A stretch of DNA of 64,000 bases. Origin: an uncultured Clostridia bacterium (GTDB taxonomy: Bacteria > Bacillota > Clostridia > TANB77 > CAG-508). The notes beneath the pieces are model-generated. The model was given only the letters and a program-made list of their open reading frames with translations. It was not told where the DNA came from and searched no databases. Below are positions 1,763 to 64,000 of the stretch, piece after piece; position 1 is the stretch's first letter, and the number at the start of each line of letters is the position of its first letter. Location of the stretch: contig CAKPIA010000002.1 in NCBI GenBank assembly GCA_934162205.1, positions 100,494 to 164,493 of the forward strand. The letters run 5' to 3'. The position numbers were made by a program, and so were the translations under genes.

Positions 1763-1837
1763 TGGAGGCGACACCCGGATTCGAACCGGGGATCAGAGTT
1801 TTGCAGACTCGTGCCTTAGCCACTTGGCTATGTCGCC
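1763..1837 (-). tRNA. tRNA-Cys (GCA)
   Basis: The reverse complement folds as a cloverleaf: acceptor GGCGACA / TGTCGCC, anticodon loop CTGCAAA, T-loop TTCGAAT, 3' CCA encoded. Confidence 0.85.
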
Positions 1838-1906
1838 GTATAAAATTACTACAATGTTATCGTATACTGACGCTGTAATTCGCTTCGCTCAAACAGCCTC
1901 AACAAC

Positions 1907-1947
1907 TTGGCTATGTCGCCGTATAAAATTACTACAATGTTATCATA
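1907..1947 (-). repeat. Direct duplicate of tRNA-Cys spacer plus first 15 nt of tRNA-Cys; degenerate pseudo-tRNA-Cys
   Basis: 41 nt (cttggctatgtcgccgtataaaattactacaatgttatc) are identical to 1822-1862. Downstream the D-arm-like sequence GCCAAGTTGTTGAGGC diverges from the real tRNA. Confidence 0.6.
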
Positions 1948-1958
1948 TACTGATGCTT

Positions 1959-3357: not shown

Positions 3358-3746
3358 ATTATATTCACCAATATATATATATGCTAATAAATTAAAAATA
3401 TGATTTGAATTTGGTGTTGATATATGTAAGTTTATAATATATTTAATGATTTACACATATAATAAAAAATTAGTATATAGAAAGTTTTATAAATAAAAAA
3501 ATAGACGTATTGAAAATTAGTAGATTTTAGTCACATAATTTTACGTAAACCCTTGATTTTGTAACGAAAATGTAATATAATTGTAATGTAGGACAGTAAT
3601 TTTGGTGAAATCTATTTCCGTAAAGGATTTAGAAGCAAAATATTACAAAGCCAGAATACTAGCAAATTATGGTATTGACTTATTTTTTTTAAGACTATAC
3701 AATTATTATAGACATAGTATAAATATAAAAAAAGGAAGGTTTAGAT

Positions 3747-6700
3747 ATGAAACTAAAAAAGATGTTTTTAATTTTAATAGGTGTTGTCATTATTAGTACA
3801 CTTTTTACAAACGTAAATGTTGCTAATGCTGCAAATGATACATTGCATGTAGGGTTGTCAAAAGTAATACCAGAAACAAGCAATGGATATGCAATATTAG
3901 ATCCAACAGTTTCTAGTGGAAACGGAAAGACTATTTGGAACTTAATTTCATATAAATCTGCTACAGGAACAGATTATTATGATTTTGCTACAACAAATAT
4001 GTATTGTTTAAAAGCTGGTGCTGGTTTTTATAATGCTGGTGGACAATCAGATCAAGCTGTAAGAAAAGATTATACTTCATTATGTGATTTGAGAGAAAAA
4101 GATAAAATGATTAATAGTACTCATACATATGTAAAAGAACTAGCAAATAGTGATAATTATTATAAAGTATTATATTTAGTTGATAATTTATATATAAAAG
4201 GAAAATCTACAAGTAAAGATATAGAAGCATTACTTCGTAAATCAGGAATATATAGTTCAGAATACATAAATGAAAATAAAGATGTTTTCCATGTTAATAG
4301 TGACCTTGATGAAGGTAAATATTATTACATATCTGATGGAGAATATGATTATTCTAGTTATGTTTATTATGGTTCATTAACAGAGGATGGATATTCACAT
4401 ATATTAACAGAAGAAGATATTGTAGCTGTACAACAATTAGCATTATGGCATTTTACAAATAATGGTACAGATTATGATAAATATTCTCAAAATAATATAG
4501 ATTGGTTAGAATATACAAAGGATAATGCAAACACATATAAAGCAATGGGTAGAGGAAGTTATGGATCAGCAGAAAATGATAGAGCTGAGCAAGCTGTAAT
4601 ATTGTATCACTACTTAATTGATTCAGCAGAGAAAAATGCAGCTAATTATAAAAATGATACAAATACAATAGGAAAACCAATCAGTACAAAATCTGCTAGT
4701 ACATTAAAAGCACAATTAATAGGTGATAGATATGTTGCAGGACCAATTAAATTAGATAAAGATAATGATTTAGTAAATGAGATAAAATTAGATATAACAG
4801 ATAATAATGGAAATGATGTTACTGATTATAGTTTTGTAGACAGCACAGGAAAGACATTAAATGAACAAACAATTTCTGAATTAATAGGAAAAGAGTTTTA
4901 TATATCTTTACCAAAGACATTAATAAATAAAATAAATATTAAATTTAATGTAAAATATGAAACAAAAAAAGCAACAATATATGTAGATAATACAACAAAT
5001 ATAGATCAACCAATAGTTGTACCTGAAATTGAAAATCAAGAATATGATATGCCATTTGTAGTGATTATAGAAGGAAAATTTGATTTAGCGTTAAGAAAAT
5101 ATATAACAAAAGTAGATGGAATAGAATTAAAGAGTACAAGTACAAGAATACCTAATATAGATACAGAAAATACATTAGATAAAGGTAAAGAAACAGCAGA
5201 TTATAAACATAAAAAAGATCCAGTTCAAATTAAAACTGGAAGTATAGTTACATATAATATTAGTGTATATAATGAAGGTGATAAAGATGGTTATGCAACA
5301 GAAGTAACAGATCAATTACCAACAGGATTAAAAAGTAATTTAAAAACAGGAGATGTAGTTACATCAACAAAAGGTAATACATATGTAGTAACATATGATG
5401 AAAAAACAAATAAAGTTATATTTAAATTAGACAAAACAAAAACAGTAAAAGGATTAAGTTCATATGTAACAGGAAAATTAGATAAAGATACAATAGAAAT
5501 TGAATGTACTGTTAGTTTACAGGCAACTTCAAAACAACAAATATTAACAAATGTTGCTTGGATAAGTGAAGAATATAATAAAATTGATGATTTAATAATA
5601 ACAAACCAAACTAAAGCGGATAGAGATTCAGAACCAGCAACTGTACCAAATGTAACTGCAGATAGTTTATTAACAGAAGAACAAGGATACAAAGGAAATG
5701 ACGCAAATAAAGATGATTTAACAGATTCAGAGTATTTTTATAAAGGAAAACAAGATGATGATGACTTTGAAAAATTAATATTATTACCAAAAACTTTTGA
5801 TTTAAAATTGGTTAAATATATAACAGCAATTAATGGAGATAAATCTAAAGGAAGAACAATTACAAGTGTAGATTCTAGTAAATTAAAATCAGGAGAAGAA
5901 ACAACAGCTGAATATACAGTAAGTAAAGATCCATTATTAGTAAGACATGGAAACTATGTAACATATACATTTAGAATATATAATGAAGGTGATTTAGATG
6001 GATATGCTTCTGAAATAACAGAGGATATTCCATATGGATTACAATTTGTATGGTCAAATGATATAGTAACAAATGCTGATGGAAAATTAAATTTTGATAA
6101 AGCTAAAGATTTATCAGAAGAAGATAAAAAGGCAATAGAATTTAACTCAAATTATTATTGGACTTTTAAAGATAGTGATATAAATAAAGATGGAAAAATA
6201 GAATTTGTTGAAAGTACTTATTTATCAAAAGAAACAGAAACAACTGAAAATGGAAACTTATTAAAAGCATTTGACAGCGCAAATGATGATGGAAAAGGAT
6301 CTGGATTATCATATAAAGAAATATCTATTATGTTAAAGGTTACTGCTCCAGATACTTATGATAAAATTATAAGAAATGAAGCTGAAATATCTAAATCAAC
6401 ATATAGTGATGGAAAAGAAGAAGCTAAAGATAGAGATTCAGATACTAAAAAATGGGTAAAATATGAAGATGATGAAGATTATGATAATATAAAATTACAA
6501 TATTTTGATTTAGCATTAAGAAAATTCATTACAGATATAAGTGGAAAAGCTGTTACATCAAGAATACCACAAGTAGAATATAAAGATGGAAAAATAACAT
6601 ATAAACATCCAAAAACTCCATTAGAAGTAGTTGTAGGTGATACAGTTACATATACAATTAGAGTATATAATGAAGGAAAATTAGATGGATATGCTTCTAA

Positions 6701-13659: not shown

Positions 13660-14193
13660 ATGTTTGATAATATATTAAAATTTTTGAAAAAAATGATAAA
13701 AAAAGAAGAAAAAAGTTCTACTTCTAAAGATACTGCTAAAGAAAGATTACATTTAGTTTTATTGCAAGATAGAGCAAATGTATCAGCAGATTTCTTGGAT
13801 ATGATGAAACAAGAAATTATTGAAGTTATAAAAAAATACATAGAAATAGACGAAAGTGCTATTGATGTAAGACTAACAAATAAAGAAAATTCAGATGGTA
13901 CTAATGGAGCACCAGCATTATATGCTAATATTCCTATAGTAAATATAAAAGATGAAACAAGAAAAATGGCAAACAAAGATGAAAAGACAGAAGATAAAGA
14001 AGAAAATAAAGAAATAGTTACTGAAAAAATAGAAAAAAAGAAAGAGAATGAGTTAGAAGAAAAGATAGAAGATAATATAAAAGAAAATGTTGATGTAGAT
14101 AATAAAGAGGCCCCAAATAAAAAAGGACAAGCTGATAAAGAAGAATCACAAGAAAAGGCTGAAGAAAACAAAGAAGAAAATGTAAACGAATAG
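13660..14193 (+). CDS. minE: Cell division topological specificity factor MinE with ~85-aa Lys/Glu-rich C-terminal extension
   Basis: Lies immediately after minD. N-terminal MinE-like region (KERLHLVLLQDR...IEVIKKYIEID). The acidic/basic low-complexity tail makes it 177 aa against about 90 for a typical MinE. Confidence 0.7.
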   Translation: MFDNILKFLKKMIKKEEKSSTSKDTAKERLHLVLLQDRANVSADFLDMMKQEIIEVIKKYIEIDESAIDVRLTNKENSDGTNGAPALYANIPIVNIKDETRKMANKDEKTEDKEENKEIVTEKIEKKKENELEEKIEDNIKENVDVDNKEAPNKKGQADKEESQEKAEENKEENVNE

Positions 14194-54902: not shown

Positions 54903-55176
54903 TATGCATTGTCTTTATTATTTAAAGCAGTATCATTTCTTGGTTACTAAAATATTCAATAAGTTGATTTTATAGGGAGAGGTTAAAAGATAGCTTACTA
55001 AGTACAAGGTTCTTTTTTTATAAACCTTGTATAAATTTTCAAGGAAGTATGGGAATTTTTTAGATATTATTGTATAATGATGTAAGTTATTACTTGTATA
55101 TAACATGAGGTGATAGTAATATGAATTTAAATAGAAAACCAATTATTGGTATAGTTTCAAAACATTTATTAAAAAA

Positions 55177-55963
55177 ATGAAACAAAGATTTAATAAAAAT
55201 ATTTTTAACAATTTGATTAATATACAAGATGTAACAAACAATGTAAGCATGTTGTCAAAAACTTTACCAAGTCTAAATATTGATAGTATATTCATTGAAC
55301 AAGATGGAAAAACTACAAAGAAGAACAATTGCATGAATTAAGAAGTTGTGCTAAAATATTAGTTGCTATGGCCATTGGAATAGCAATTGATAAAAAATTA
55401 TCAATATCAAGTGAAACATTAACTTTAAATACTAAAATTTTTCCAGTAATTAAAGATGTAACAAATATAACAAATAAAAATAATATTAAGAAGATTAAAG
55501 AATGGACAATAAAGGATTTACTCACGCATACTACTGGTTATGAAGCACGAATGATGTCAGAAAGATTTATACAAGATATTGACGATAACAAATTAGTAGA
55601 TTATGCTTTAAATTATGATATTCCATATGAAGTAGGAGTTAGATTTGCTTATAACAATGTAGAACCATTTATATTATCTGTTTTTTTCAAGAAGCGTTTA
55701 ATCAAAATTTGGCAGATTTCATTGATGAAAATATATTTAAAAAAGTTAACATTTTAGATTATAAATGGGAAAAATATGGTAAATATTGTCCAGGAGCTAC
55801 TGGATTATATCTTAAACATTCTGATTTTCATAAGATAGGTCAATTATTACTAAATGAAGGAAAATATAACAACAATCAAATTGTTTCAAGTAGCTGGATA
55901 AAAGAAATGTGTTCTATAAAATTAAAAACAATACGTTTCACAAGATATGTTAGCAGATTTTAA
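55177..55963 (+). pseudogene. Serine hydrolase of the beta-lactamase/PBP (class C-like) family, decayed: three frames and internally shortened
   Basis: N-terminal fragment in frame 1 (55177-55341). SxxK motif SCAK plus ...LTHTTGY... in frame 0 (55329-55757). C-terminal YCPGATGLYLK...LLNEGKYNN... in frame 2 (55709-55963). Total length is far below an intact homologue. Confidence 0.7.
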
Positions 55964-56234
55964 AGCAGAATTTGGATTAACAGAATTTAAGGTTTGTGAA
56001 TTAGGTGGTAATTTAGTTTTACCAGAGTATAGAGGAAATGGAATTACTACTAAATTACAAACTATGGAATTACAATTAGCAAAAAATTTAGGATTTGATT
56101 ATATAATTTCTATGGCTCATCCAGATAATATTGGTAGTTGTAAAACTCTTGAAAGAGTTGGATTAAAATTTGTAAAAGAAACAACTTTATCAAATGGATT
56201 TTTAAGAAAATTATATATGTTAAAATTGAAATAG
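55947..56234 (+). pseudogene. GNAT acetyltransferase, 5'-truncated remnant
   Basis: Only the C-terminal ~95 aa remain, including motif A region EYRGNGITTKL. Overlaps the preceding pseudogene. Confidence 0.55.
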
Positions 56235-56244
56235 TTATATAACA

Positions 56245-56275
56245 ATAGGACAATGTTAGTTGCATTGTCCTATTG
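56245..56275 (+). terminator. Perfect 15-bp inverted repeat hairpin
   Basis: aacaataggacaatg-ttagttg-cattgtcctattgtt. Confidence 0.55.
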
Positions 56276-56281
56276 TTATAT

Positions 56282-56334
56282 AAAATAAAAACTTACGAAC
56301 TTTTCAGTTCGTAAGTTTATTTTAATTGGAGCGG
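56282..56334. repeat. Left imperfect direct repeat (att-like) ending in the tRNA-Gly 3' octamer tggagcgg
   Basis: aaaataaaaacttacgaact (21/21 identical to 61980-62000), then similar sequence, ending in tggagcgg, which equals the 3' end CCGCTCCA of tRNA-Gly(TCC) on the minus strand. Confidence 0.65.
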
Positions 56335-56473
56335 TTAAGCAACATCTTACGAACCATAACACTCTCTTTCTAAAAATATTATATACGAATTACAATTAAA
56401 TTTCAATGGGAGTATGGAGAATTTTGTTATTTTATAGTATAATATTCATAATTAAAATTCTTGGAGGTACTAT

Positions 56474-57031
56474 ATGAGCAAATTTAAAACAATGGTTAGA
56501 AAAGATATTGAACTTTGTGATGAATATATTGCTAAGAATATGGCTACTCATTCAGAAGTTAATGCTTTATTAGGAAAATATGTAATGGATTATCCTGATT
56601 TTAATAAAAATATTATTGCATATGCTAGTGTTCCAGGGCATGAAACTAATGAAATAGAAAATATTAAAATAATAAAATCGAAGTTAGAATATTTGTTAAA
56701 TCGAAGTGATAATCCTGATTTATATAATAAGCAGAATAATTCTGGTATCACCATATCTAATGTAAATAATAACAATAATACAAATAATGTTAATCTTAAT
56801 ATAAGTATTGAAGATATAAAATCAAATATTGATGAAAATACATATCTAAGTGATTTGGATAAAAAGGAATTATTAGGCAAATTAGATGAAATAATAGAAT
56901 TACAAAAAAGCAAAGAAAGTAAGACTAAAAAATGGGATAAAGCAAAAAAAATTTTAGCATTTTTACTTGATAAGGGTGCAGATATTGCAATTATGTATAT
57001 TCCACAAATATTAAAAGCTTTAGGCAATTAA
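56474..57031 (+). CDS. Hypothetical protein; first gene of the islet cargo operon
   Basis: RBS GGAGGT. No recognisable domain; central poly-Asn stretch. Confidence 0.5.
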   Translation: MSKFKTMVRKDIELCDEYIAKNMATHSEVNALLGKYVMDYPDFNKNIIAYASVPGHETNEIENIKIIKSKLEYLLNRSDNPDLYNKQNNSGITISNVNNNNNTNNVNLNISIEDIKSNIDENTYLSDLDKKELLGKLDEIIELQKSKESKTKKWDKAKKILAFLLDKGADIAIMYIPQILKALGN

Positions 57032-57047
57032 TTTAAAGGAGGAAATT

Positions 57048-57851
57048 ATGGATAAAATTATAATGTTAGGTACAGGTAATGGTGGAACAATTGATTTATA
57101 CAATACCTGTTTTGTAATTAAAAATGAAAATGGCAATTTCTTAATTGATACAGGTGGAAGTATTGAAATCATAAAAAGACTAAATCAAGTAGATATAGAT
57201 TATAAATCAATACGTCATATTTTTATATCTCATAGTCATACTGACCACATATTAGGTATATTCTGGCTATTTAAAAGAATAAGTAGAAATGTTATGCACG
57301 GTGATATAAAAGAAAAAATAAATTTGTATTGTAATGATACAGTATATGAATCTATTAAAGAAGTAGCAAAGTATATACTTCCGGAAAAACTTATGAATGC
57401 CATATATAGTATTGTAGATTTTAAGGTGTTAAATGATGGAGATAAATATAATATTAACGGAATAGATTATACTTTCTTTGATATTCAAGCAAAAGGAACA
57501 AAACAATTTGGATTTGAATGTAGTTTAAATGATAAAAGATTAGCATTTCTTGGAGATGAAACTTTAAATCCAAATCTTTATGATAGAATTAAAGGTTTTG
57601 ATTATGTTATGCACGAGGCTTTTTGTTTAGATTCAGAAGAAAATATATTCCATGCCTATGAAAAAAATCATTCAACAACAAAAAGTGTTAGTGAAGTAAT
57701 GAATACATTAGAGGTTAAAAATTTAATTTTATATCATACCGAAGAATCTCATAAAGAAAAAAGAAAAGAATTATACACAAAAGAAGCACAAGAATTTTTT
57801 AATGGTAATGTAATAGTACCAAATGATTTAGAAATTATAGAAATAAATTAG
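57048..57851 (+). CDS. Metallo-beta-lactamase-fold hydrolase (RNase Z/BN-like short form)
   Basis: RBS AGGAGG, 16 bp after the previous stop. HxHxDH motif HSHTDH and N-terminal LGTGNGG. Confidence 0.7.
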   Translation: MDKIIMLGTGNGGTIDLYNTCFVIKNENGNFLIDTGGSIEIIKRLNQVDIDYKSIRHIFISHSHTDHILGIFWLFKRISRNVMHGDIKEKINLYCNDTVYESIKEVAKYILPEKLMNAIYSIVDFKVLNDGDKYNINGIDYTFFDIQAKGTKQFGFECSLNDKRLAFLGDETLNPNLYDRIKGFDYVMHEAFCLDSEENIFHAYEKNHSTTKSVSEVMNTLEVKNLILYHTEESHKEKRKELYTKEAQEFFNGNVIVPNDLEIIEIN

Positions 57852-57869
57852 AAAGAGAGTGAATTATAT

Positions 57870-58301
57870 ATGGGAATAGTAATTGTTGGTGGAGTAATTG
57901 AAAAAGATGGTAAATTTCTTTTAGTTCAAGAGGCACAAGAAAAATGCAGAGGTAAATGGAATATACCGGCAGGGCATTTAGATCCAAATGAAACAATTTT
58001 TGATGGAGCTAAAAGAGAAATTAAAGAAGAAACAGGATGCAATGTTGAATTAACAGGTGTCCTACAAATAGGTAATCGAGTGTTAGAAGATGATGTATTT
58101 GTAAGTGTGATATTTTCAACTAAATTATTAGACGAAAATATTACATACAACCCTAATGAAATACTAGATGTTAAATGGTTCACTTATGAAGAATTGCTTA
58201 ATATGAAGGATGAATTAAGGTCATATAATTGGATTATTAACAGCATAACTGCTTTGATTGAAAACAAAGTCGCAGATATTGATTTGGTAAAAATGATGTA
58301 A
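57870..58301 (+). CDS. NUDIX hydrolase
   Basis: Nudix box GHLDPNETIFDGAKREIKEETG (G-x5-E-x7-REuxEExG). Confidence 0.8.
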   Translation: MGIVIVGGVIEKDGKFLLVQEAQEKCRGKWNIPAGHLDPNETIFDGAKREIKEETGCNVELTGVLQIGNRVLEDDVFVSVIFSTKLLDENITYNPNEILDVKWFTYEELLNMKDELRSYNWIINSITALIENKVADIDLVKMM

Positions 58302-58320
58302 TCAATGGAGTATATAATAA

Positions 58321-59217
58321 ATGAATAATAATTATAATCTATTAAGAAGCAAAGATATAATTGCAATATTAGATGGAGATTTTCAAATAGAAGAAGTTGA
58401 TGGTATAAGAATTGCTATGCCATATTTAAGCGGACCAATGCTTTGTGAACTTTCCCAAAAATTTGGATACTATCAGGAATATTACTGGGGAAATAGTTCT
58501 AAACCAAATTTGAGTAGATGGCAGTATATGGATAATATTTTGGAATATGTTATTAAAGAAAATAAGACAAGCCAACTTTTGTCATATATGATGGAGAAAG
58601 AAAGATTTTCGGATAGTTTGAGAAACCTAAATAATGTAAATGATATAGAAAAAATGTATAAATATATTATAAAAAAAGTTATAGATCAAATTAATTCTAT
58701 ATTGTATTTTGGTGGGCACGAATTAGTTATAATTAATAATCAATATATCATCAAGAATATCGATGAGAAAATTAATATCGATGTTCCGAATATAAATATT
58801 GTTGATAGAGATTATATTAAAGATTTATCTGAACGTGCAATGAAAGATATAGATGAAGGAAATTTAGATAGTGCCATTACAAAATCAAGAACCATTTTAG
58901 AAGAAACTTTTTGTTACGCTATTGAAATTAAAGGAGAAGAACCTTCTGATAGTGGTGATATTGGGAAGTTATATAAACAAGTAAAAGACTTGTATAATAT
59001 GCATGCAAATAAAGATATGGATAAAAGAGTTAATAAGTTATTATCTGGGCTTGAAAATATTGTTCAGTCAATTGCTGAAATGAGAAACAATGGAAGTGAT
59101 TCGCATGGTCTTGGAAATAAGCGAGTAAATATTTCAGACTACCATGCTAGATTAGCTGTAAATTCTTCTACCACTATGGCTGAATTTATTCTCTCTGTAT
59201 CTCAGAATTCAAAATAA
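58321..59217 (+). CDS. AbiJ-like abortive-infection-type protein with C-terminal HEPN (Abi_C-like) domain
   Basis: C-terminal EMRNNGSDSHGLGN contains an Rx6H HEPN-type motif, followed by a hydrophobic helix LAVNSSTTMAEFIL. 19 bp after the NUDIX gene. Confidence 0.5.
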   Translation: MNNNYNLLRSKDIIAILDGDFQIEEVDGIRIAMPYLSGPMLCELSQKFGYYQEYYWGNSSKPNLSRWQYMDNILEYVIKENKTSQLLSYMMEKERFSDSLRNLNNVNDIEKMYKYIIKKVIDQINSILYFGGHELVIINNQYIIKNIDEKINIDVPNINIVDRDYIKDLSERAMKDIDEGNLDSAITKSRTILEETFCYAIEIKGEEPSDSGDIGKLYKQVKDLYNMHANKDMDKRVNKLLSGLENIVQSIAEMRNNGSDSHGLGNKRVNISDYHARLAVNSSTTMAEFILSVSQNSK

Positions 59218-59323
59218 TAATTTGAAGTTAAGGGTATGGGAATTCCCATAATAGAATTTATGCGGGAGTATAAATTCAGTGCTGGCTAGACACTACTTTT
59301 ACTCCCACATTGGAAAACATAGA

Positions 59324-59364
59324 AAAAGAGGATTAAATTATTTTGATAATTTTTTCCTCTTTTT
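59324..59364. terminator. Bidirectional terminator between the cargo operon and the minus-strand recombination genes
   Basis: aaaagaggat - 22-nt loop - tcctctttttttt. Confidence 0.55.
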
Positions 59365-59374
59365 TTGAGATTAT

Positions 59375-59731
59375 TTATACAAAAACATATTCATTTAAGA
59401 CAATTTCCTCAGCCATATTTTTGTAATTATTCATTAACTTTGTCCACTCAATTGGATTTAATTCTTTACTTTTTTCAGGCAGTCTTTCATCGCTTTTGAT
59501 ATAATCATCCATTAGTATTTTGTATAAACTTTCACAAGAATCACTGACTAAAAGAAGATGATGAGTAAGTTTATTTGTTATCAATAGTGTTTCATAAAGT
59601 GCTTGTTTGTTTTGTGCAATAAAGTGTAATCTTAGTATTCCGTATTTGCCAATTCTTCCACATTCTTCCTCTTTTTCTAAATATAAATTTGGTATTAAAT
59701 AATCTTCTTGTCTTGTATATTTTATTTCCAT
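59375..59731 (-). CDS. Small protein immediately downstream of the serine recombinase (position analogous to tnpV of Tn4451-family elements; function unknown)
   Basis: RBS AAAGGA; 118 aa. Co-directional with the recombinase, 24-bp gap. Confidence 0.4.
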   Translation of the reverse strand: MEIKYTRQEDYLIPNLYLEKEEECGRIGKYGILRLHFIAQNKQALYETLLITNKLTHHLLLVSDSCESLYKILMDDYIKSDERLPEKSKELNPIEWTKLMNNYKNMAEEIVLNEYVFV

Positions 59732-59755
59732 AGTTTTATCAATCCTTTCTTAATT

Positions 59756-61537
59756 TTAAACATTTATTAGTTCTGTTTTTGGTATAAGAATTAAAGTATC
59801 AACTATATTGTTGCCTTCAATATAAGGACAATTTATTATTCCATCTACATAGAAATGTTCTTTCATTAAATTAATATAGTTGTTTAATTCTTCTTCAGAA
59901 TATAGATTATTTTCTATTTTTTCTAATGACATAATGGTATAATCTTTTTGTAATTCTAATAATTTTTCTTTATTAATTTGTTCTTTATAAGTTATACCAA
60001 TATTATTATTAGTTAGTAGTTCATTTAAATAATCAATATAATCTTGTGTACTTTTTGAGATAAATTCTTCAGTAAATTTGATATTTTTAATCTCAATATT
60101 GTAGTTATCATCTCTAATTATTTCAATAGAAGATATTAATCTATTAATTAATTCTTTTTGTGCTTTTCTATTTAAACTATCAAATAAATAAGCAAAACTT
60201 AAATTATTTTTAAATATAAAATCTCCATTATCTTCTTCATAATCTAATTTTTTTAGAAGTTCTACTGTGTATTCTTTAAAGTCATTATCTGGATCAAGAG
60301 TAGTTTTCTTTTTAGTTAGTTTATCAATCTCTTTTTTAATAACATCATTTTTATGATTAATAGTTTCTACATCAAGAGTAGAACTTAAATATAAGTCAAC
60401 TAATCTTTTTTCTTGAACTTTTAATTTTTCAATGGCTTTGTCTATTTCCTTTACTTCTTTACTTTTGGTAGAACTACAAGTAATTATTTCGTTAGAATTA
60501 TCATACATAAATCTAGTTAATTCATTTAAAATTCTTTTTAATTTATCTTCAATTTTATCTGAATTATAATGATAACCATAACCTTTGCAATTAGAGTTTT
60601 TACATCTTAAATGATAATAAATTTTAGTTTCATTCTTATACTTTTTAAATGATTCACTAGCAGCAAGTATTTCATTACATATTGGACATTTTACTAATCC
60701 TGCAAATAAATGAATATGCTCTCCATAGTTTGGATGTTTATTTTTTTCTAAATTTGCTCTTGTCGTGTTCCAAGTAGTTATATCAATAATTGGCTCACAA
60801 TAGTCTTCAACTCTTAAAACATCCTGTGGTTTTCTTTTATACTTTCCATACTCAAATACACCAATATAAATAGAATTAGTAAGTATCTTATAAACTCTAT
60901 CTGCTTTCCATTTGCCTAGTTTTAAATAAGCGTTATTATCTTTCATAATAGTTGCAATATTTCTAGTAGAATGTCCTATTTTACATAGTTCAAATATCTC
61001 TTTAACAACTTGTGATTCAATAGGTTCTACTTCTAAATGACCAGTTTCTTTGTTTCTAATATAGCCATAAGGTGCTTTACTTGGGTGTATTTTTTCAAGT
61101 GCCATTTCTTCCATTGCTCGTTTAGTTCTTGCCCCAATTTCTTTCCTTTCACGTTGACCGAATACTAAATTCATACCAAATATCATTTCACCATTAGCAG
61201 TAGATACATCATAAGGTTCAAGTATTAATTCAATCTTAACATCGTGTTCTTCACAGTAATTAAGTAGCCAGAATCCATCATAATTATTTCTAGTTAATCT
61301 ATCTACTTTAATAGCAATCAACTTATCAATTTTCTTTGATTTGATATCTTTTAATAATCTTTGCATTTCAGGTCTCATTAAATCTTTACCAGAATGTCCT
61401 GCATCATTATAGACATCCACAATATCATAATTATTCTTTTCACAATATTCTTTTATCATTCGAAGTTGTGAATCAATAGAATAGCCATTATCTCTTTGGT
61501 CATCAGTAGATACTCTTACATAAACTCCACATCTCAT
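59756..61537 (-). CDS. Large serine recombinase (resolvase-type catalytic domain, recombinase domain, zinc ribbon)
   Basis: N-terminal VYVRVSTDDQ...GYSIDSQ carries the catalytic Ser. C-terminal Cys cluster CPICNE...CKNSNCKGYG; 593 aa. Confidence 0.9.
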   Translation of the reverse strand: MRCGVYVRVSTDDQRDNGYSIDSQLRMIKEYCEKNNYDIVDVYNDAGHSGKDLMRPEMQRLLKDIKSKKIDKLIAIKVDRLTRNNYDGFWLLNYCEEHDVKIELILEPYDVSTANGEMIFGMNLVFGQRERKEIGARTKRAMEEMALEKIHPSKAPYGYIRNKETGHLEVEPIESQVVKEIFELCKIGHSTRNIATIMKDNNAYLKLGKWKADRVYKILTNSIYIGVFEYGKYKRKPQDVLRVEDYCEPIIDITTWNTTRANLEKNKHPNYGEHIHLFAGLVKCPICNEILAASESFKKYKNETKIYYHLRCKNSNCKGYGYHYNSDKIEDKLKRILNELTRFMYDNSNEIITCSSTKSKEVKEIDKAIEKLKVQEKRLVDLYLSSTLDVETINHKNDVIKKEIDKLTKKKTTLDPDNDFKEYTVELLKKLDYEEDNGDFIFKNNLSFAYLFDSLNRKAQKELINRLISSIEIIRDDNYNIEIKNIKFTEEFISKSTQDYIDYLNELLTNNNIGITYKEQINKEKLLELQKDYTIMSLEKIENNLYSEEELNNYINLMKEHFYVDGIINCPYIEGNNIVDTLILIPKTELINV

Positions 61538-61623
61538 AATTTTCCTCCTTTCCTCAAATTTTGAGAAATATTAAATACCTCTCATATGTTTCCTCACTTA
61601 AATGCAAAAAGTGTACCCTAAAT

Positions 61624-61899
61624 TTAAAAATTTCTTAAAAAAGTTTCAATTTCTTTCAAATTATACTTTTCTTTACGCTCTTTAATGTAGAATGGTTTAT
61701 TACTAATTTCATTTACTTTATATTCAAATATAGTAATAGTAATGGGATATATAATTAGATACTCGGTTGGTTCAATAAACTGCAAATTAGTATTTAGAAG
61801 AACTTTAACTTTTCCTTTTTTAGTTTTATAAGTAAATTCTTTAATAAGTTCTAGTAGTTTAGGATTAGGTTTGAGTTCTTGGGTAATTTTAAATTCAAG
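61624..61899 (-). CDS. Hypothetical small protein upstream of the recombinase
   Basis: RBS GGAAGGAGG, then ATG at 61899 (MLEFKITQEL...). The ORF track's longer start at 61965 lacks an RBS. Confidence 0.4.
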   Translation of the reverse strand, partial: LEFKITQELKPNPKLLELIKEFTYKTKKGKVKVLLNTNLQFIEPTEYLIIYPITITIFEYKVNEISNKPFYIKERKEKYNLKEIETFLRNF

Positions 61900-61979
61900 C
61901 ATAAAAAATGTCCTCCTTCCTAGAAAGAGAACATTATCTTTATATTTGGTAGAACAAGCCTTCAAGCCTGACTACGGAC

Positions 61980-62026
61980 AAAATAAAAACTTACGAACTT
62001 TAATTAGTCCGTAAGTTGTCTTCAAA

Positions 62027-62034
<8 letters not shown>
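61980..62034. repeat. Right imperfect direct repeat (att-like) overlapping the tRNA-Gly(TCC) 3' end
   Basis: aaaataaaaacttacgaact...ccgtaagtt...tggagcgg; partner of 56282-56334. Confidence 0.65.
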
Positions 62035-62100
<66 letters not shown>

Positions 62101-62241
62101 ATCTAAAACCATTATAAAATATAAAGACATTTTTTTCAAGTATTTTTATATTTTGATTGATAATAAAAAATAGATATGTTATTATAATTTCGAAAAAAAT
62201 AGCAAATAATAAATGTAGTTATTTTAAGGAGGAAAAAACGG

Positions 62242-64000
62242 ATGAAATTTGAAGAATGGAAAGATTTTAATAAAGGTGAATGGCAAGATGAAATAAATGT
62301 AAGAGATTTTATTCAAAGAAACTATACACCATATGAAGGAGATGAAAGTTTTTTAGTTGGAACAACAGAAAAAACAAACAAATTATGGAATGAAGTTTTA
62401 GAATTATATAAAAAGGAAAAAGATTCAGAAGGTGGAGTTTTAGATATAGACACAAAAACAGTATCAACAATATCAGCACATGAAGCGGGATATATAGATG
62501 AAGAATTAGAAGACATTGTTGGACTTCAAACAGACAAGCCATTAAAAAGAGCAATAATGCCATTTGGTGGAATAAGAATAGTTGAAAAATCATGTGAAGC
62601 ATATGGTAGAAAAGTTGACCCAGAAACAGATGAAATATTTCATAAATATAGAAAAACACATAATGATGGTGTGTTTAGTGTATATACACCAGATATTAGA
62701 GCTGCAAGAAGTTCTCACTTAATTACAGGACTTCCAGATGGATATGGAAGAGGAAGAATTATAGGAGATTACAGAAGAGTTACACTTTATGGTGTTGATG
62801 TATTAATAGAAGAAAAGAAAGATGAATTAAACCAATTAGATGTAGACTGCTTTACAGAAGAAATAATAAGAGAAAGAGAAGAAATAAGTGAACAAATAAA
62901 TGCACTTAACGAATTAAAAGTTATGGCATCTAAATATGGCTTTGATATTTCTAAACCAGCTCAAAATTCAAAAGAAGCAGTTCAATGGTTGTATTTTGGA
63001 TATTTAGCAGCAATAAAAGATCAAAATGGTGCTGCAATGAGTTTAGGAAGAACCTCTACATTTTTAGATATATATTTTGAAAGAGATTTAAAAAATGGAA
63101 CAATTACAGAAGAAGAAGTTCAAGAAATAATGGACCATTTTATAATGAAATTAAGATTAGTAAGATTTTTAAGAACACCAGAATACAATGAATTATTTAG
63201 TGGAGACCCTGTATGGGTAACAGAAAGTATTGGTGGTATGGGAATTGATGGTAGAACATTAGTTACAAAAAATTCATTTAGAATTTTACACACATTAGAA
63301 AATCTTGGGCCAGCTCCAGAACCAAATTTAACAGTTCTATGGTCAACAAGATTACCAGAAGGATTTAAAAGATATACTTCTAAATTATCAATAAAAACAT
63401 CATCAATACAATATGAAAATGATGATGTTATGAGAATAACATTAGGAGATGATTATGGAATAGCATGTTGTGTATCGCCTATGAAAATAGGAAAGCAAAT
63501 GCAATTCTTTGGAGCTAGAGCTAATTTAGCTAAAACACTATTATATGCAATAAATGGTGGTAGAGATGAAAAATCTGGAAAACAAGTTACACCAAAATTT
63601 GCTCCAATAACTTCAGAATATTTAGATTATGAAGAAGTTATGGAAAAATTTGATCAAATGATGGATTATGTTGCAAAAATATATATAAAAGCATTAGACG
63701 CAATTCATTATATGCACGATAAATACTCATATGAAGCAATAGAAATGGCTTTACATGATAAAGATATATTACAAACAATGGCATGTGGAATAGCTGGACT
63801 TTCAGTAGTTGCAGACTCACTTTCAGCTATAAAATATGCAAAAGTAAAAGTTATTAGAGACGAAACAGGGCTAGCAGTTGATTATGAAGTTGATGGCGAC
63901 TTCCCTAAATTTGGAAATGATGATGACAGAGTTGACCAAATTGCAGTTGATATAGTAAGAACATTTATTAAAAAATTAAGAAAATATCCTACTTATAAAA
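62242..64000 (+). CDS. pflB: Pyruvate formate-lyase (formate C-acetyltransferase), 3' partial, continues beyond the window
   Basis: RBS AAGGAGG. N-terminal [38 protein letters not shown] is PFL-typical. The frame stays open to the window end, so the ORF is absent from the complete-ORF track. Confidence 0.9.

Follow-up and report, generated by a model that had tools for sequence, protein, structure and literature searches.

Among the mobile genetic elements of bacteria that are moved by large serine recombinases (LSRs), the SCC elements (SCCmec; CcrAB/CcrC) integrate at the 3' end of a conserved housekeeping gene, which stays active, carry variable cargo and no transfer genes of their own, and form tandem or composite arrays at one site. 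Targeting of tRNA gene ends, by comparison, is treated as a hallmark of, and almost exclusive to, the tyrosine integrases. Large serine integrases have a phage-type attachment site, attP, with imperfect dyad symmetry about a central dinucleotide that is itself non-palindromic. For the transposition of Tn4451 the recombinase is sufficient by itself; a circular intermediate is formed and exchange takes place at a 2-bp sequence, as in TnpX-type enzymes generally. The transposon is mobilised in trans and integrates with low specificity (PMC5704250). The site-specific serine-recombinase integrative mobilizable elements (IMEs) and integrative and conjugative elements (ICEs) have protein genes (rumA, traG, maff2, snf2) as targets and disrupt those into which they integrate (Coluzzi 2017, PMC5357655; Guedon 2017, PMC5704250). 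In the largest systematic survey of islands, serine-integrase (S-Int) islands in t(m)RNA genes account for 14 of 297 computational cases, and were called previously unreported and in need of proof (Mageeney et al., PMC7192596). Here we analyse a 64,000-nt stretch (hereafter the window; contig CAKPIA010000002.1, positions 100,494 to 164,493) from an uncultured Clostridia bacterium, in which a 5,700-bp element encoding an LSR is inserted at the 3' end of a tRNA-Gly(TCC) gene. An earlier note, made from the sequence of the window, had read this region as a small islet bounded by ~53-bp direct repeats, and had called tRNA targeting by a serine recombinase less common.

The element and its insertion sites

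We conclude, with high confidence, that window 56332-62031 is an LSR-driven integrative element specific for tRNA 3' ends. The features that define its borders are as follows.

56332-62031, minus strand: integrative element, the 5,700-bp unit between predicted crossover positions.
62027-62100, minus strand: tRNA-Gly(TCC), the target gene, called by ARAGORN and by Rfam (63.6 bits), intact after insertion.
61980-62026, minus strand: right repeat copy, the element-borne near arm, the same in every host of the element.
56282-56326, minus strand: left repeat copy, the host-side tRNA trailer displaced from the tRNA, with a terminator hairpin at 56289-56318 (fold z -7.3).
56327-56334, minus strand: core of the left junction, TGGAGCGG, which copies the 3' end of the tRNA, CCGCTCCA; seen at all 10 left junctions.

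The two repeats (56282-56334 and 61980-62034) share the exact 22-mer AAAATAAAAACTTACGAACTTT at 56282-56303 and 61980-62001, after which both run through a CGTAAGTT hairpin arm and end in TGGAGCGG, as described in the earlier note; the identical 21-mer given there is a true shared run, although its exact length is 22 and the string quoted has 20 letters. With up to three mismatches the 22-mer is present twice in the window (expected 0.01; 0 of 100 shuffles reach 2), and AACTTACGRAC occurs four times, every one within the two repeats (expected 0). The octamer TGGAGCGG at 62027-62034 is the reverse complement of the final 8 nt of the minus-strand tRNA-Gly(TCC), again as first noted, and a promoter-like site for the tRNA gene lies at 62139-62111. 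The distance between the repeats, put at about 5.7 kb before, is 5,645 bp; measured from one crossover position to the equivalent one, the unit has 5,700 bp. Over 55000-62300, a relaxed-threshold Rfam search detected nothing besides the tRNA.

Contigs of the same species were found by exact-protein look-up of the flanking MFS transporter. One of them (L008) is an empty tRNA-Gly(TCC) site of the kind that the earlier note had proposed to look for in related genomes: 55000-56334 is joined directly to 61980-62283 via a single trailer copy, the empty attB being at 3713-3790 of that contig. In two others (L003 and L004) the site is occupied: after the identical flank and trailer come the first 70-130 bp of the element. 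Copies in other hosts were found by recombinase look-up, as contigs with an identical protein inside the same seven-gene unit. In these (L011-L020) the element is 99.6-99.9% identical at the nucleotide level to window ~56327-62032 and the surroundings are different; the neighbours differ among hosts, the GC content of the flanks is 24-35% versus 25.8% for the element, and in L012/L015, L013, L014, L018 and L020 the element abuts tRNA-Gly(TCC) genes that differ in sequence (at least five different genes). All 10 of 10 left junctions consist of the host flank, TGGAGCGG and then TTAAGCAAC (also given as TTAAGC), and all right junctions read ...CAAATGGAGC (also given as ...GTCTTCAAATGGAGC), followed by the host tRNA. 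The boundaries, the presence/absence polymorphism and the site specificity in several hosts are directly observed, as are the gene identities and the family-wide association with tRNAs described below, and the earlier view of an inserted mobile element at a tRNA 3' end holds.

At one further junction (L016 1-211) the identical element is joined to non-tRNA DNA, between GGGCTCCA and TTTGAAG, with the GCTCCA core alone shared; the contig represents a secondary site of insertion or else a chimera made in assembly.

The empty site bears directly on the possibility that the repeats arose by local duplication of the tRNA trailer, the 5.7 kb between them being fixed and immobile. The lack of compositional contrast (GC 25.8% in the element, 25.2% in the window) would suit such an origin; the existence of an empty site in the same species, the identical DNA at other tRNA-Gly genes in other genomes (L012-L020) and the fact that all ORFs (open reading frames) of the element are intact make it scarcely credible.

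The same junctions show what the ~53-bp repeat is. The left copy is host DNA, the trailer of this host's tRNA; the one trailer present in the empty site either equals it or differs from it as strains do. The right copy is identical in all hosts and therefore belongs to the element. Element arm and host flank agree at 38-40 of 47 positions in this species, whereas the flanks in L012-L018 are ~50% identical to the arm (24-31 columns match in alignments 48-55 columns long) and share with it only the 8-nt core; GCTCCA (TGGAGC on the plus strand) is the only sequence common to all insertion sites. The repeats bounding the islet are thus real but local to this host, and the part of the earlier claim that did not stand is that recombination had generated them as a duplication. 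If the ~53-bp repeats were instead the functional att sites, long identity with the trailer being needed as in a tyrosine-integrase-style or homology-driven insertion, one would expect extended matches such as the 22-nt exact run and the 38 matches over 49 columns that are seen when the 47-nt arm is aligned with gaps. That explanation is highly improbable, given that the L012-L018 flanks are ~50% identical to the arm with the 8-nt core only, that no tyrosine recombinase (no Phage_integrase domain) is encoded in the element, and that the right copy travels with the element in every host; we rejected the ~53-bp repeat as a functional att site on the multi-host junctions.

The length of the repeat at this locus is explained by landing beside a trailer that is homologous to the arm of the element family (see below). 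The local trailer resembles the conserved family arm, and to its left lie decayed GNAT and beta-lactamase genes that are 86-95% identical to the cargo of an intact element of a second LSR type in L060. On these two grounds we propose that window ~55215-56326 is what is left of an older element, the left repeat probably being the fossil near arm of this older, related element. A search to the left of 56282 for a second core or a far end of the presumed older element found none. The genes in question, a beta-lactamase-family and a GNAT gene at 55177-56281, have split ORFs, with a GNAT of 95 aa compared to 168 aa in L002, and the entire stretch from the MFS gene to the tRNA differs between strains (L001, L002, L003). 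Directly after the GNAT gene and abutting the left repeat is a perfect 21-bp inverted repeat with a 7-nt loop (56235-56283), which is probably a bidirectional terminator and is conserved with L060.

Target specificity, attachment sites and predicted crossover

Relatives were collected by a scan of one genome per GTDB species, which found 313, and the locus counts given here cover the best 80 of these. The best 80 LSRs are 74-97% identical and their hosts are uncultured low-GC gut Firmicutes, for example Clostridium sp. CAG:571, Acholeplasma sp. CAG:878 and metagenome-assembled genomes labelled Bacilli, Mollicutes, Tenericutes and Erysipelotrichaceae; the 90% cluster has 1,313 members. In 45 of the 80 loci a same-strand tRNA ends 455-801 nt upstream of the recombinase gene: tRNA-Gly(TCC) in 27 loci, tRNA-Gly(GCC) in 7, tRNA-Thr(CGT) in 8 and tRNA-Thr(GGT) in 3. 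Every one of the 45 target tRNAs has the T-arm GTYCGATTY and the end GCTCCA, and is followed by the conserved arm TTTGAAnACAACTTACGrAC...GTTCGTAAGTTTTTATTTT. Since all four tRNAs are used by LSRs with above 85% identity to the query, the specificity is for the shared end rather than for a single tRNA. Another 22 loci have, in front of the arm, recurrent sequences that are not tRNAs but also end in the core; these are of a kind typical of tandem arrays, the far ends of other element types. Sizes of the mapped family elements are ~3.4-9 kb.

In the genome of the window itself, a tRNA-Gly(GCC) gene at 1959-2034 ends in CCGCTCCA, has the T-loop GGGTTTGAGCC and carries no element, while tRNA-Gly(GCC) is a target of family relatives in other genomes. 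An unoccupied tRNA-Gly(GCC) with GGGTTTGAGCC is compatible with T-loop recognition, but anecdotal. Between this gene and a tRNA-Cys there is a ~48-nt duplication (window ~1820-1955, minus strand), the duplicated segment consisting of upstream sequence and the first 16 nt of the tRNA-Cys, which leaves a truncated tRNA-Cys 5' fragment. In another genome (L047), a second complete tRNA-Gly(TCC) gene at 13926-13999 lies ~6 kb downstream of the recombinase, which suggests that some arrays carry or duplicate the whole tRNA.

Natural sequence variants place the exchange within the core. The tRNAs of L014 and L020 end in TGGAGCAG (plus-strand reading), so that octamer position 7 is the host A at the tRNA-side junction and the element G at the far junction. 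Where the target is tRNA-Thr, the far end of the element still has CCGCTCCA, and the tRNA itself has GGCTCCA or AGCTCCA. Together, these two patterns confine the exchange to GCTCCA (TGGAGC on the plus strand). GCTCCA is present in all targets, and natural variants could not narrow the crossover below this 6-bp core. The far end of the element carries one of the two attP half-sites.

56335-56354, minus strand: attP half-site P (far arm), TTAAGCAACATCTTACGAAC, or GTTCGTAAGATGTTGCTTAA when read on the tRNA strand; conserved in the family.

The near arm holds the attP P' half-site GTCCGTAAGTTGTCTTCAAA (62007-62026) and an intrinsic terminator for the tRNA, a hairpin at 61988-62017 followed by a T-run. 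On the tRNA strand each of the two repeat copies resembles an intrinsic terminator (fold z-scores -4.2 and -7.3) and the right copy is element-borne; the element thus provides the tRNA with a new terminator in place of its own. At their far ends, 25 family elements have the conserved sequence GTTCGTAAGcTGTtGCTTAA-cCGCTCCA. Joining the element ends gives an attP of GTTCGTAAGATGTTGCTTAA-CCGCTCCA-TTTGAAGACAACTTACGGAC, an imperfect 48-bp dyad, with the reconstructed junction sequence GTTCGTAAGATGTTGCTTAACCGCTCCATTTGAAGACAACTTACGGAC. In the consensus attP, GTTCGTAAGcTGTtGCTTAAcC-GCTCCA-TTTGAAaaCAACTTACGgAC, the far arm is taken from 25 elements and the near arm from 73. When the dyad symmetry was scored in every register, the CT centre gave 14 of 22 matches and ten others gave at most 8. 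CT is non-palindromic and lies inside the core, and from this symmetry we predict that the crossover dinucleotide is probably CT, C72-U73 of the tRNA, which in the window reads AG at 56330-56331 and 62030-62031.

The attB site would consist of the tRNA T-arm and acceptor end (GTTCGATTC...GCTCCA) plus a poorly conserved trailer. By sequence comparison, GTTCG is 4 bp nearer the core in the tRNA half-site than it is in the attP arms. Zinc-ribbon-domain motifs are offset between attB and attP in the model of the A118 integrase, and one may speculate that the GTTCG offset is a similar case. In the mechanism that we infer, the LSR would excise the element as a circular form and insert this form into the 3' end of tRNA genes by attP x attB exchange at the central dinucleotide, inside GCTCCA and most probably at the central CT; the tRNA body would be kept, and the CCA end and a new intrinsic terminator would come from the element.

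Several points weigh against this reading or parts of it. The crossover dinucleotide was placed by symmetry, and the TnpX/TndX dinucleotide is GA, which would correspond here to TC one base over. Integration beside a P'-like arm is unexpected for classical unidirectional phage LSRs. The exact attP junction, or excised circle, of the element is absent from the JGI metagenome contigs and from IMG/VR, and a degenerate family attP pattern had two matches, both of them chromosomal tandem arrays on contigs of 76 and 84 kb. Metagenome contigs can also be chimeric across a shared repeat and the pairing of left and right flanks is not guaranteed; each junction counts as independent evidence on its own.

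Gene content, relatives and transfer

Seven ORFs and two conserved non-coding features lie within the element.

59756-61537, minus strand: LSR, 593 aa, with Resolvase and Recombinase domains.
59375-59731, minus strand: tnpV, 118 aa (PF14198, E 7.6e-28).
61624-61902, minus strand: p92, a conserved 92-aa protein upstream of the LSR (best gene call).
61907-61935, minus strand: hairpin pairing the p92 Shine-Dalgarno sequence, a 13-pair stem, 100% conserved in many relatives (positions 91-124 of the arm-p92 spacer).
59228-59292, minus strand: conserved non-coding 65-nt motif downstream of tnpV, within the 157-bp spacer after tnpV.
56474-57031, plus strand: cargo gene 1, 185 aa, no Pfam, NCBIfam or PHROG match.
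57048-57851, plus strand: cargo gene 2, metallo-beta-lactamase-fold hydrolase (Pfam Lactamase_B_2, E 3e-16).
57870-58301, plus strand: cargo gene 3, NUDIX hydrolase (Pfam NUDIX, E 5e-23; PADLOC PDC-S07, E 1e-14).
58321-59217, plus strand: cargo gene 4, AbiJ-type abortive-infection protein (PADLOC AbiJ, E 3.2e-84).

The recombinase near the tRNA end is a bona fide LSR by its Pfam domains, as the earlier note had supposed: the Resolvase domain PF00239 (E 5.5e-33) covers residues 5-146, with the motif YVRVSTDDQ at residues 6-14, and the Recombinase domain PF07508 (E 1.9e-16) covers residues 172-266. Zn_ribbon_recom PF13408 is matched weakly, below the cut-off (E 0.009), and four cysteines (CPIC...CKNSNC) are present in the translation. 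It is the only recombinase within the element. The searches suggested earlier against TnpX, CcrA/B and phage integrases gave matches to TnpX, CcrB and TP901-1: the best PDB match is the TP901-1 integrase N-terminal domain (E 3e-20), TnpX (2mhc) is matched over the N-terminal domain only (E 4.8e-8, residues 4-90), and the best NCBIfam match, CcrB (E 5e-44), is far below cut-off. In a collection of plasmid records all plasmid-borne LSRs were <35% identical to it, and a nucleotide search with the element against plasmid records had no match.

Of the tnpX-tnpV-like order proposed earlier, the downstream half stands, for the small gene is TnpV (PF14198) and TnpV lies directly downstream of the LSR in 59 of the 80 relatives; the N-terminal match does not make the recombinase a close relative of TnpX. 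We considered a Tn4451/Tn4453-type mobilisable transposon of low specificity and GA ends that sits at the tRNA by chance, for which the LSR-tnpV order, the small size and the N-terminal homology to TnpX (E 5e-8) speak. It is very unlikely, since a tRNA 3' end is the exact position of all mapped insertions of the identical element but one (L016) and of 45-47 of ~70 assessable relatives, TnpY, TnpZ, TnpW and cat have no match among the seven ORFs, and the LSR is <35% identical to any plasmid-borne LSR, while Tn4451 integrates with low specificity (PMC5704250). Tn4451 family membership was rejected on the site specificity and the distant recombinase. A role of TnpV in directionality is possible.

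The further small gene that had been noticed upstream of the recombinase is p92, which is found in 74 of the 80 relatives; the protein collection contains 2,349 homologues. Neither Pfam nor NCBIfam has a family that matches it, and Pfam at E up to 5 on 26 homologues also gave nothing; an AF2 model from 26 close homologues is unreliable (mean pLDDT 58.6). The hairpin in front of p92, invariant in many relatives, suggests translational or attenuation control of the p92-LSR operon.

Matches of the LSR to PHROG 95, annotated integrase (E 1e-98), and the presence of 14 relatives on IMG/VR contigs labelled viral might indicate that the element is a prophage remnant or phage satellite and the LSR its phage integrase. 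No structural, replication or packaging phage gene is encoded between the arms, however, and the element has no nucleotide match among 50,697 phage records; in the two contigs scanned (L104 and L105) tail and endolysin genes lie outside the element, upstream of the near arm, and a prophage end immediately precedes the family element. A phage origin is therefore most improbable, and a prophage remnant was rejected for the lack of phage genes between the arms and of a phage-record match. Nine IMG/VR loci (L104-L111, L113) have the near arm after a short tRNA 3' remnant, not a complete tRNA. The remnant consists of the last ~12-15 nt of tRNA-Gly (e.g. ...tcatcacctGCTCCA), ~45 nt upstream of the near arm. 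It appears from this that one and the same tRNA accumulates both prophages and family elements, as would be expected of tandem arrays that include a prophage end.

The four co-directional genes at the far end form the plus-strand operon described earlier. The AbiJ match is full-length (residues 2-297 against profile positions 3-280 of 281), with an Abi_C/HEPN C-terminus (Pfam Abi_C, E 2.7e-22), and by these gene identities the cargo is an AbiJ-type abortive-infection cassette, with a putative role in defence. Cargo gene 2 may be of the RNase Z, Apyc1 or cyclic-nucleotide phosphodiesterase type, all weak matches (Apyc1, E 1.4e-4; NCBIfam RNase Z halves, E 5e-26; both below cut-off). An anti-Pycsar Apyc1-like protein together with a NUDIX hydrolase (57048-58301) could act in degradation of signalling nucleotides (counter-defence), or in partnership with AbiJ. 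Cargo gene 1 was not found in the 80 species-representative relatives, and the AbiJ cassette is present in only one other species representative, which indicates cargo turnover. The cargo of two relatives (L105 10645-14600 and L106 10649-16277) is a DNA methyltransferase and a helicase-like protein, and the genes of other neighbours include SLFN/AlbA_2, PIN, Abi_alpha and a DUF6036 nucleotidyltransferase. The family appears to traffic mainly in defence-type genes.

The conserved backbone of the family is made up of p92, the LSR, TnpV and the 65-nt motif. Copies of the motif that are 85-98% identical occur in 50 loci, also in those with a TnpV of only ~50% identity, and no Rfam family matches it. 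In the 7 loci tested, a NikA-like/MobC-like ribbon-helix-helix gene starts 20-25 bp after the motif, and some tandem neighbours encode Mob_Pre or PF03432 relaxases. We tentatively regard the motif, at somewhat less than an even chance, as a candidate orphan origin of transfer (oriT) that is mobilised in trans by related elements; it may alternatively be a promoter/operator (mob-operator) or the tnpV terminator. The element of the window has the motif and no NikA gene or relaxase in its copy, and its transfer is conjectural; no nic site was identified. The element is probably mobilizable, and because the motif precedes a NikA-like relaxosome gene in relatives, trans-mobilisation from the orphan oriT is proposed as the likely route by which it would spread between cells. 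A tandem neighbour in L011 (15212-19715; also L002 13700-16783) has TnpV, the 65-nt motif, a NikA-like gene and Abi_alpha cargo and no recombinase, and may be a non-autonomous element that relies on a recombinase supplied in trans.

A second LSR lineage, 27% identical and 606-655 aa long (L060 289-2631; L016 5921-8238), is likewise accompanied by TnpV, the 65-nt motif and NikA, and uses the same tRNA-Gly core with a different arm, TAAGGTAAAATCGTCGCACC... The motif is thus present in second-lineage elements too. There is in our estimate an even chance that the element belongs to a large undescribed group of LSR-TnpV mini-elements of uncultured low-GC gut Firmicutes with at least two LSR lineages, which would recognise the T-loop/acceptor/CCA end of tRNA-Gly/Thr (GTTCGATTC...GCTCCA), have attP arms with a T-loop-like GTYCG ~4 bp further from the crossover, bring their own terminator, tolerate P'-like arms, stack with each other and with prophages into defence hotspots, and spread via the orphan oriT.

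Comparison with known systems

A literature search on serine recombinases at tRNA genes and on TnpV tRNA elements, with subscription journals mostly outside its reach, found no description of the family, which is widespread in gut bacteria and apparently undescribed. By the features used to define IMEs, the element has its own integration module and mapped att ends, with empty and occupied sites. The family provides clean evidence from nature, replicated many times over, that the 3' ends of tRNA-Gly and tRNA-Thr are used by an abundant clade of LSRs, with base-resolved boundaries and an empty site, and so bears on the question of why integrases choose tRNA genes. It is also a vehicle for defence-gene turnover in uncultured gut Firmicutes, and LSRs with a conserved tRNA-end attB in many hard-to-engineer gut bacteria are attractive as genome integration tools.

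Tn4451/Tn4453, mobilisable transposons of Clostridium perfringens and Clostridioides difficile, resemble the element in size (~6 kb), in low-GC Firmicutes hosts and in having an LSR with tnpV immediately downstream, the TnpV belonging to the same Pfam family. The element differs from Tn4451 in its distant LSR (593 aa, N-terminal match only), in its strict specificity for tRNA 3' ends, in being without TnpY, TnpZ (Mob_Pre), TnpW and catP, and in the extra conserved p92; the mobilisation region of the relatives is of the NikA type, and the cargo is of the defence type and not antibiotic resistance. With the SCC elements it has in common LSR-driven insertion at a gene 3' end that spares the gene, variable cargo, the lack of its own transfer genes and tandem arrays, but its target is a tRNA instead of rlmH, it relies on a single recombinase with TnpV and p92, it is much smaller, and its hosts are uncultured gut Firmicutes.

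The serine-recombinase IMEs and ICEs of streptococci and other Firmicutes also have a single LSR, site-specific integration, very short direct repeats and variable cargo, whereas the family described here inserts at the 3' ends of tRNAs, with restoration of the gene as well as of the terminator. The phage large serine integrases (TP901-1, A118, phiC31, Bxb1) share the domain architecture and the imperfect dyad of attP; in contrast to these, the element is not in a phage and appears to tolerate a P'-like arm on the B' side (tandem arrays, window). The tyrosine-integrase tRNA islands (Islander type) are alike in the use of the tRNA 3' end, the reconstituted gene, the tRNA-proximal integrase gene and tandem accretion at a hotspot, and differ in recombinase superfamily and chemistry and in that the shared core here is 6 bp and not tens of bp. 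The element thus works like an LSR element of the SCC/Tn4451 type but occupies the niche of the tyrosine-integrase tRNA islands.

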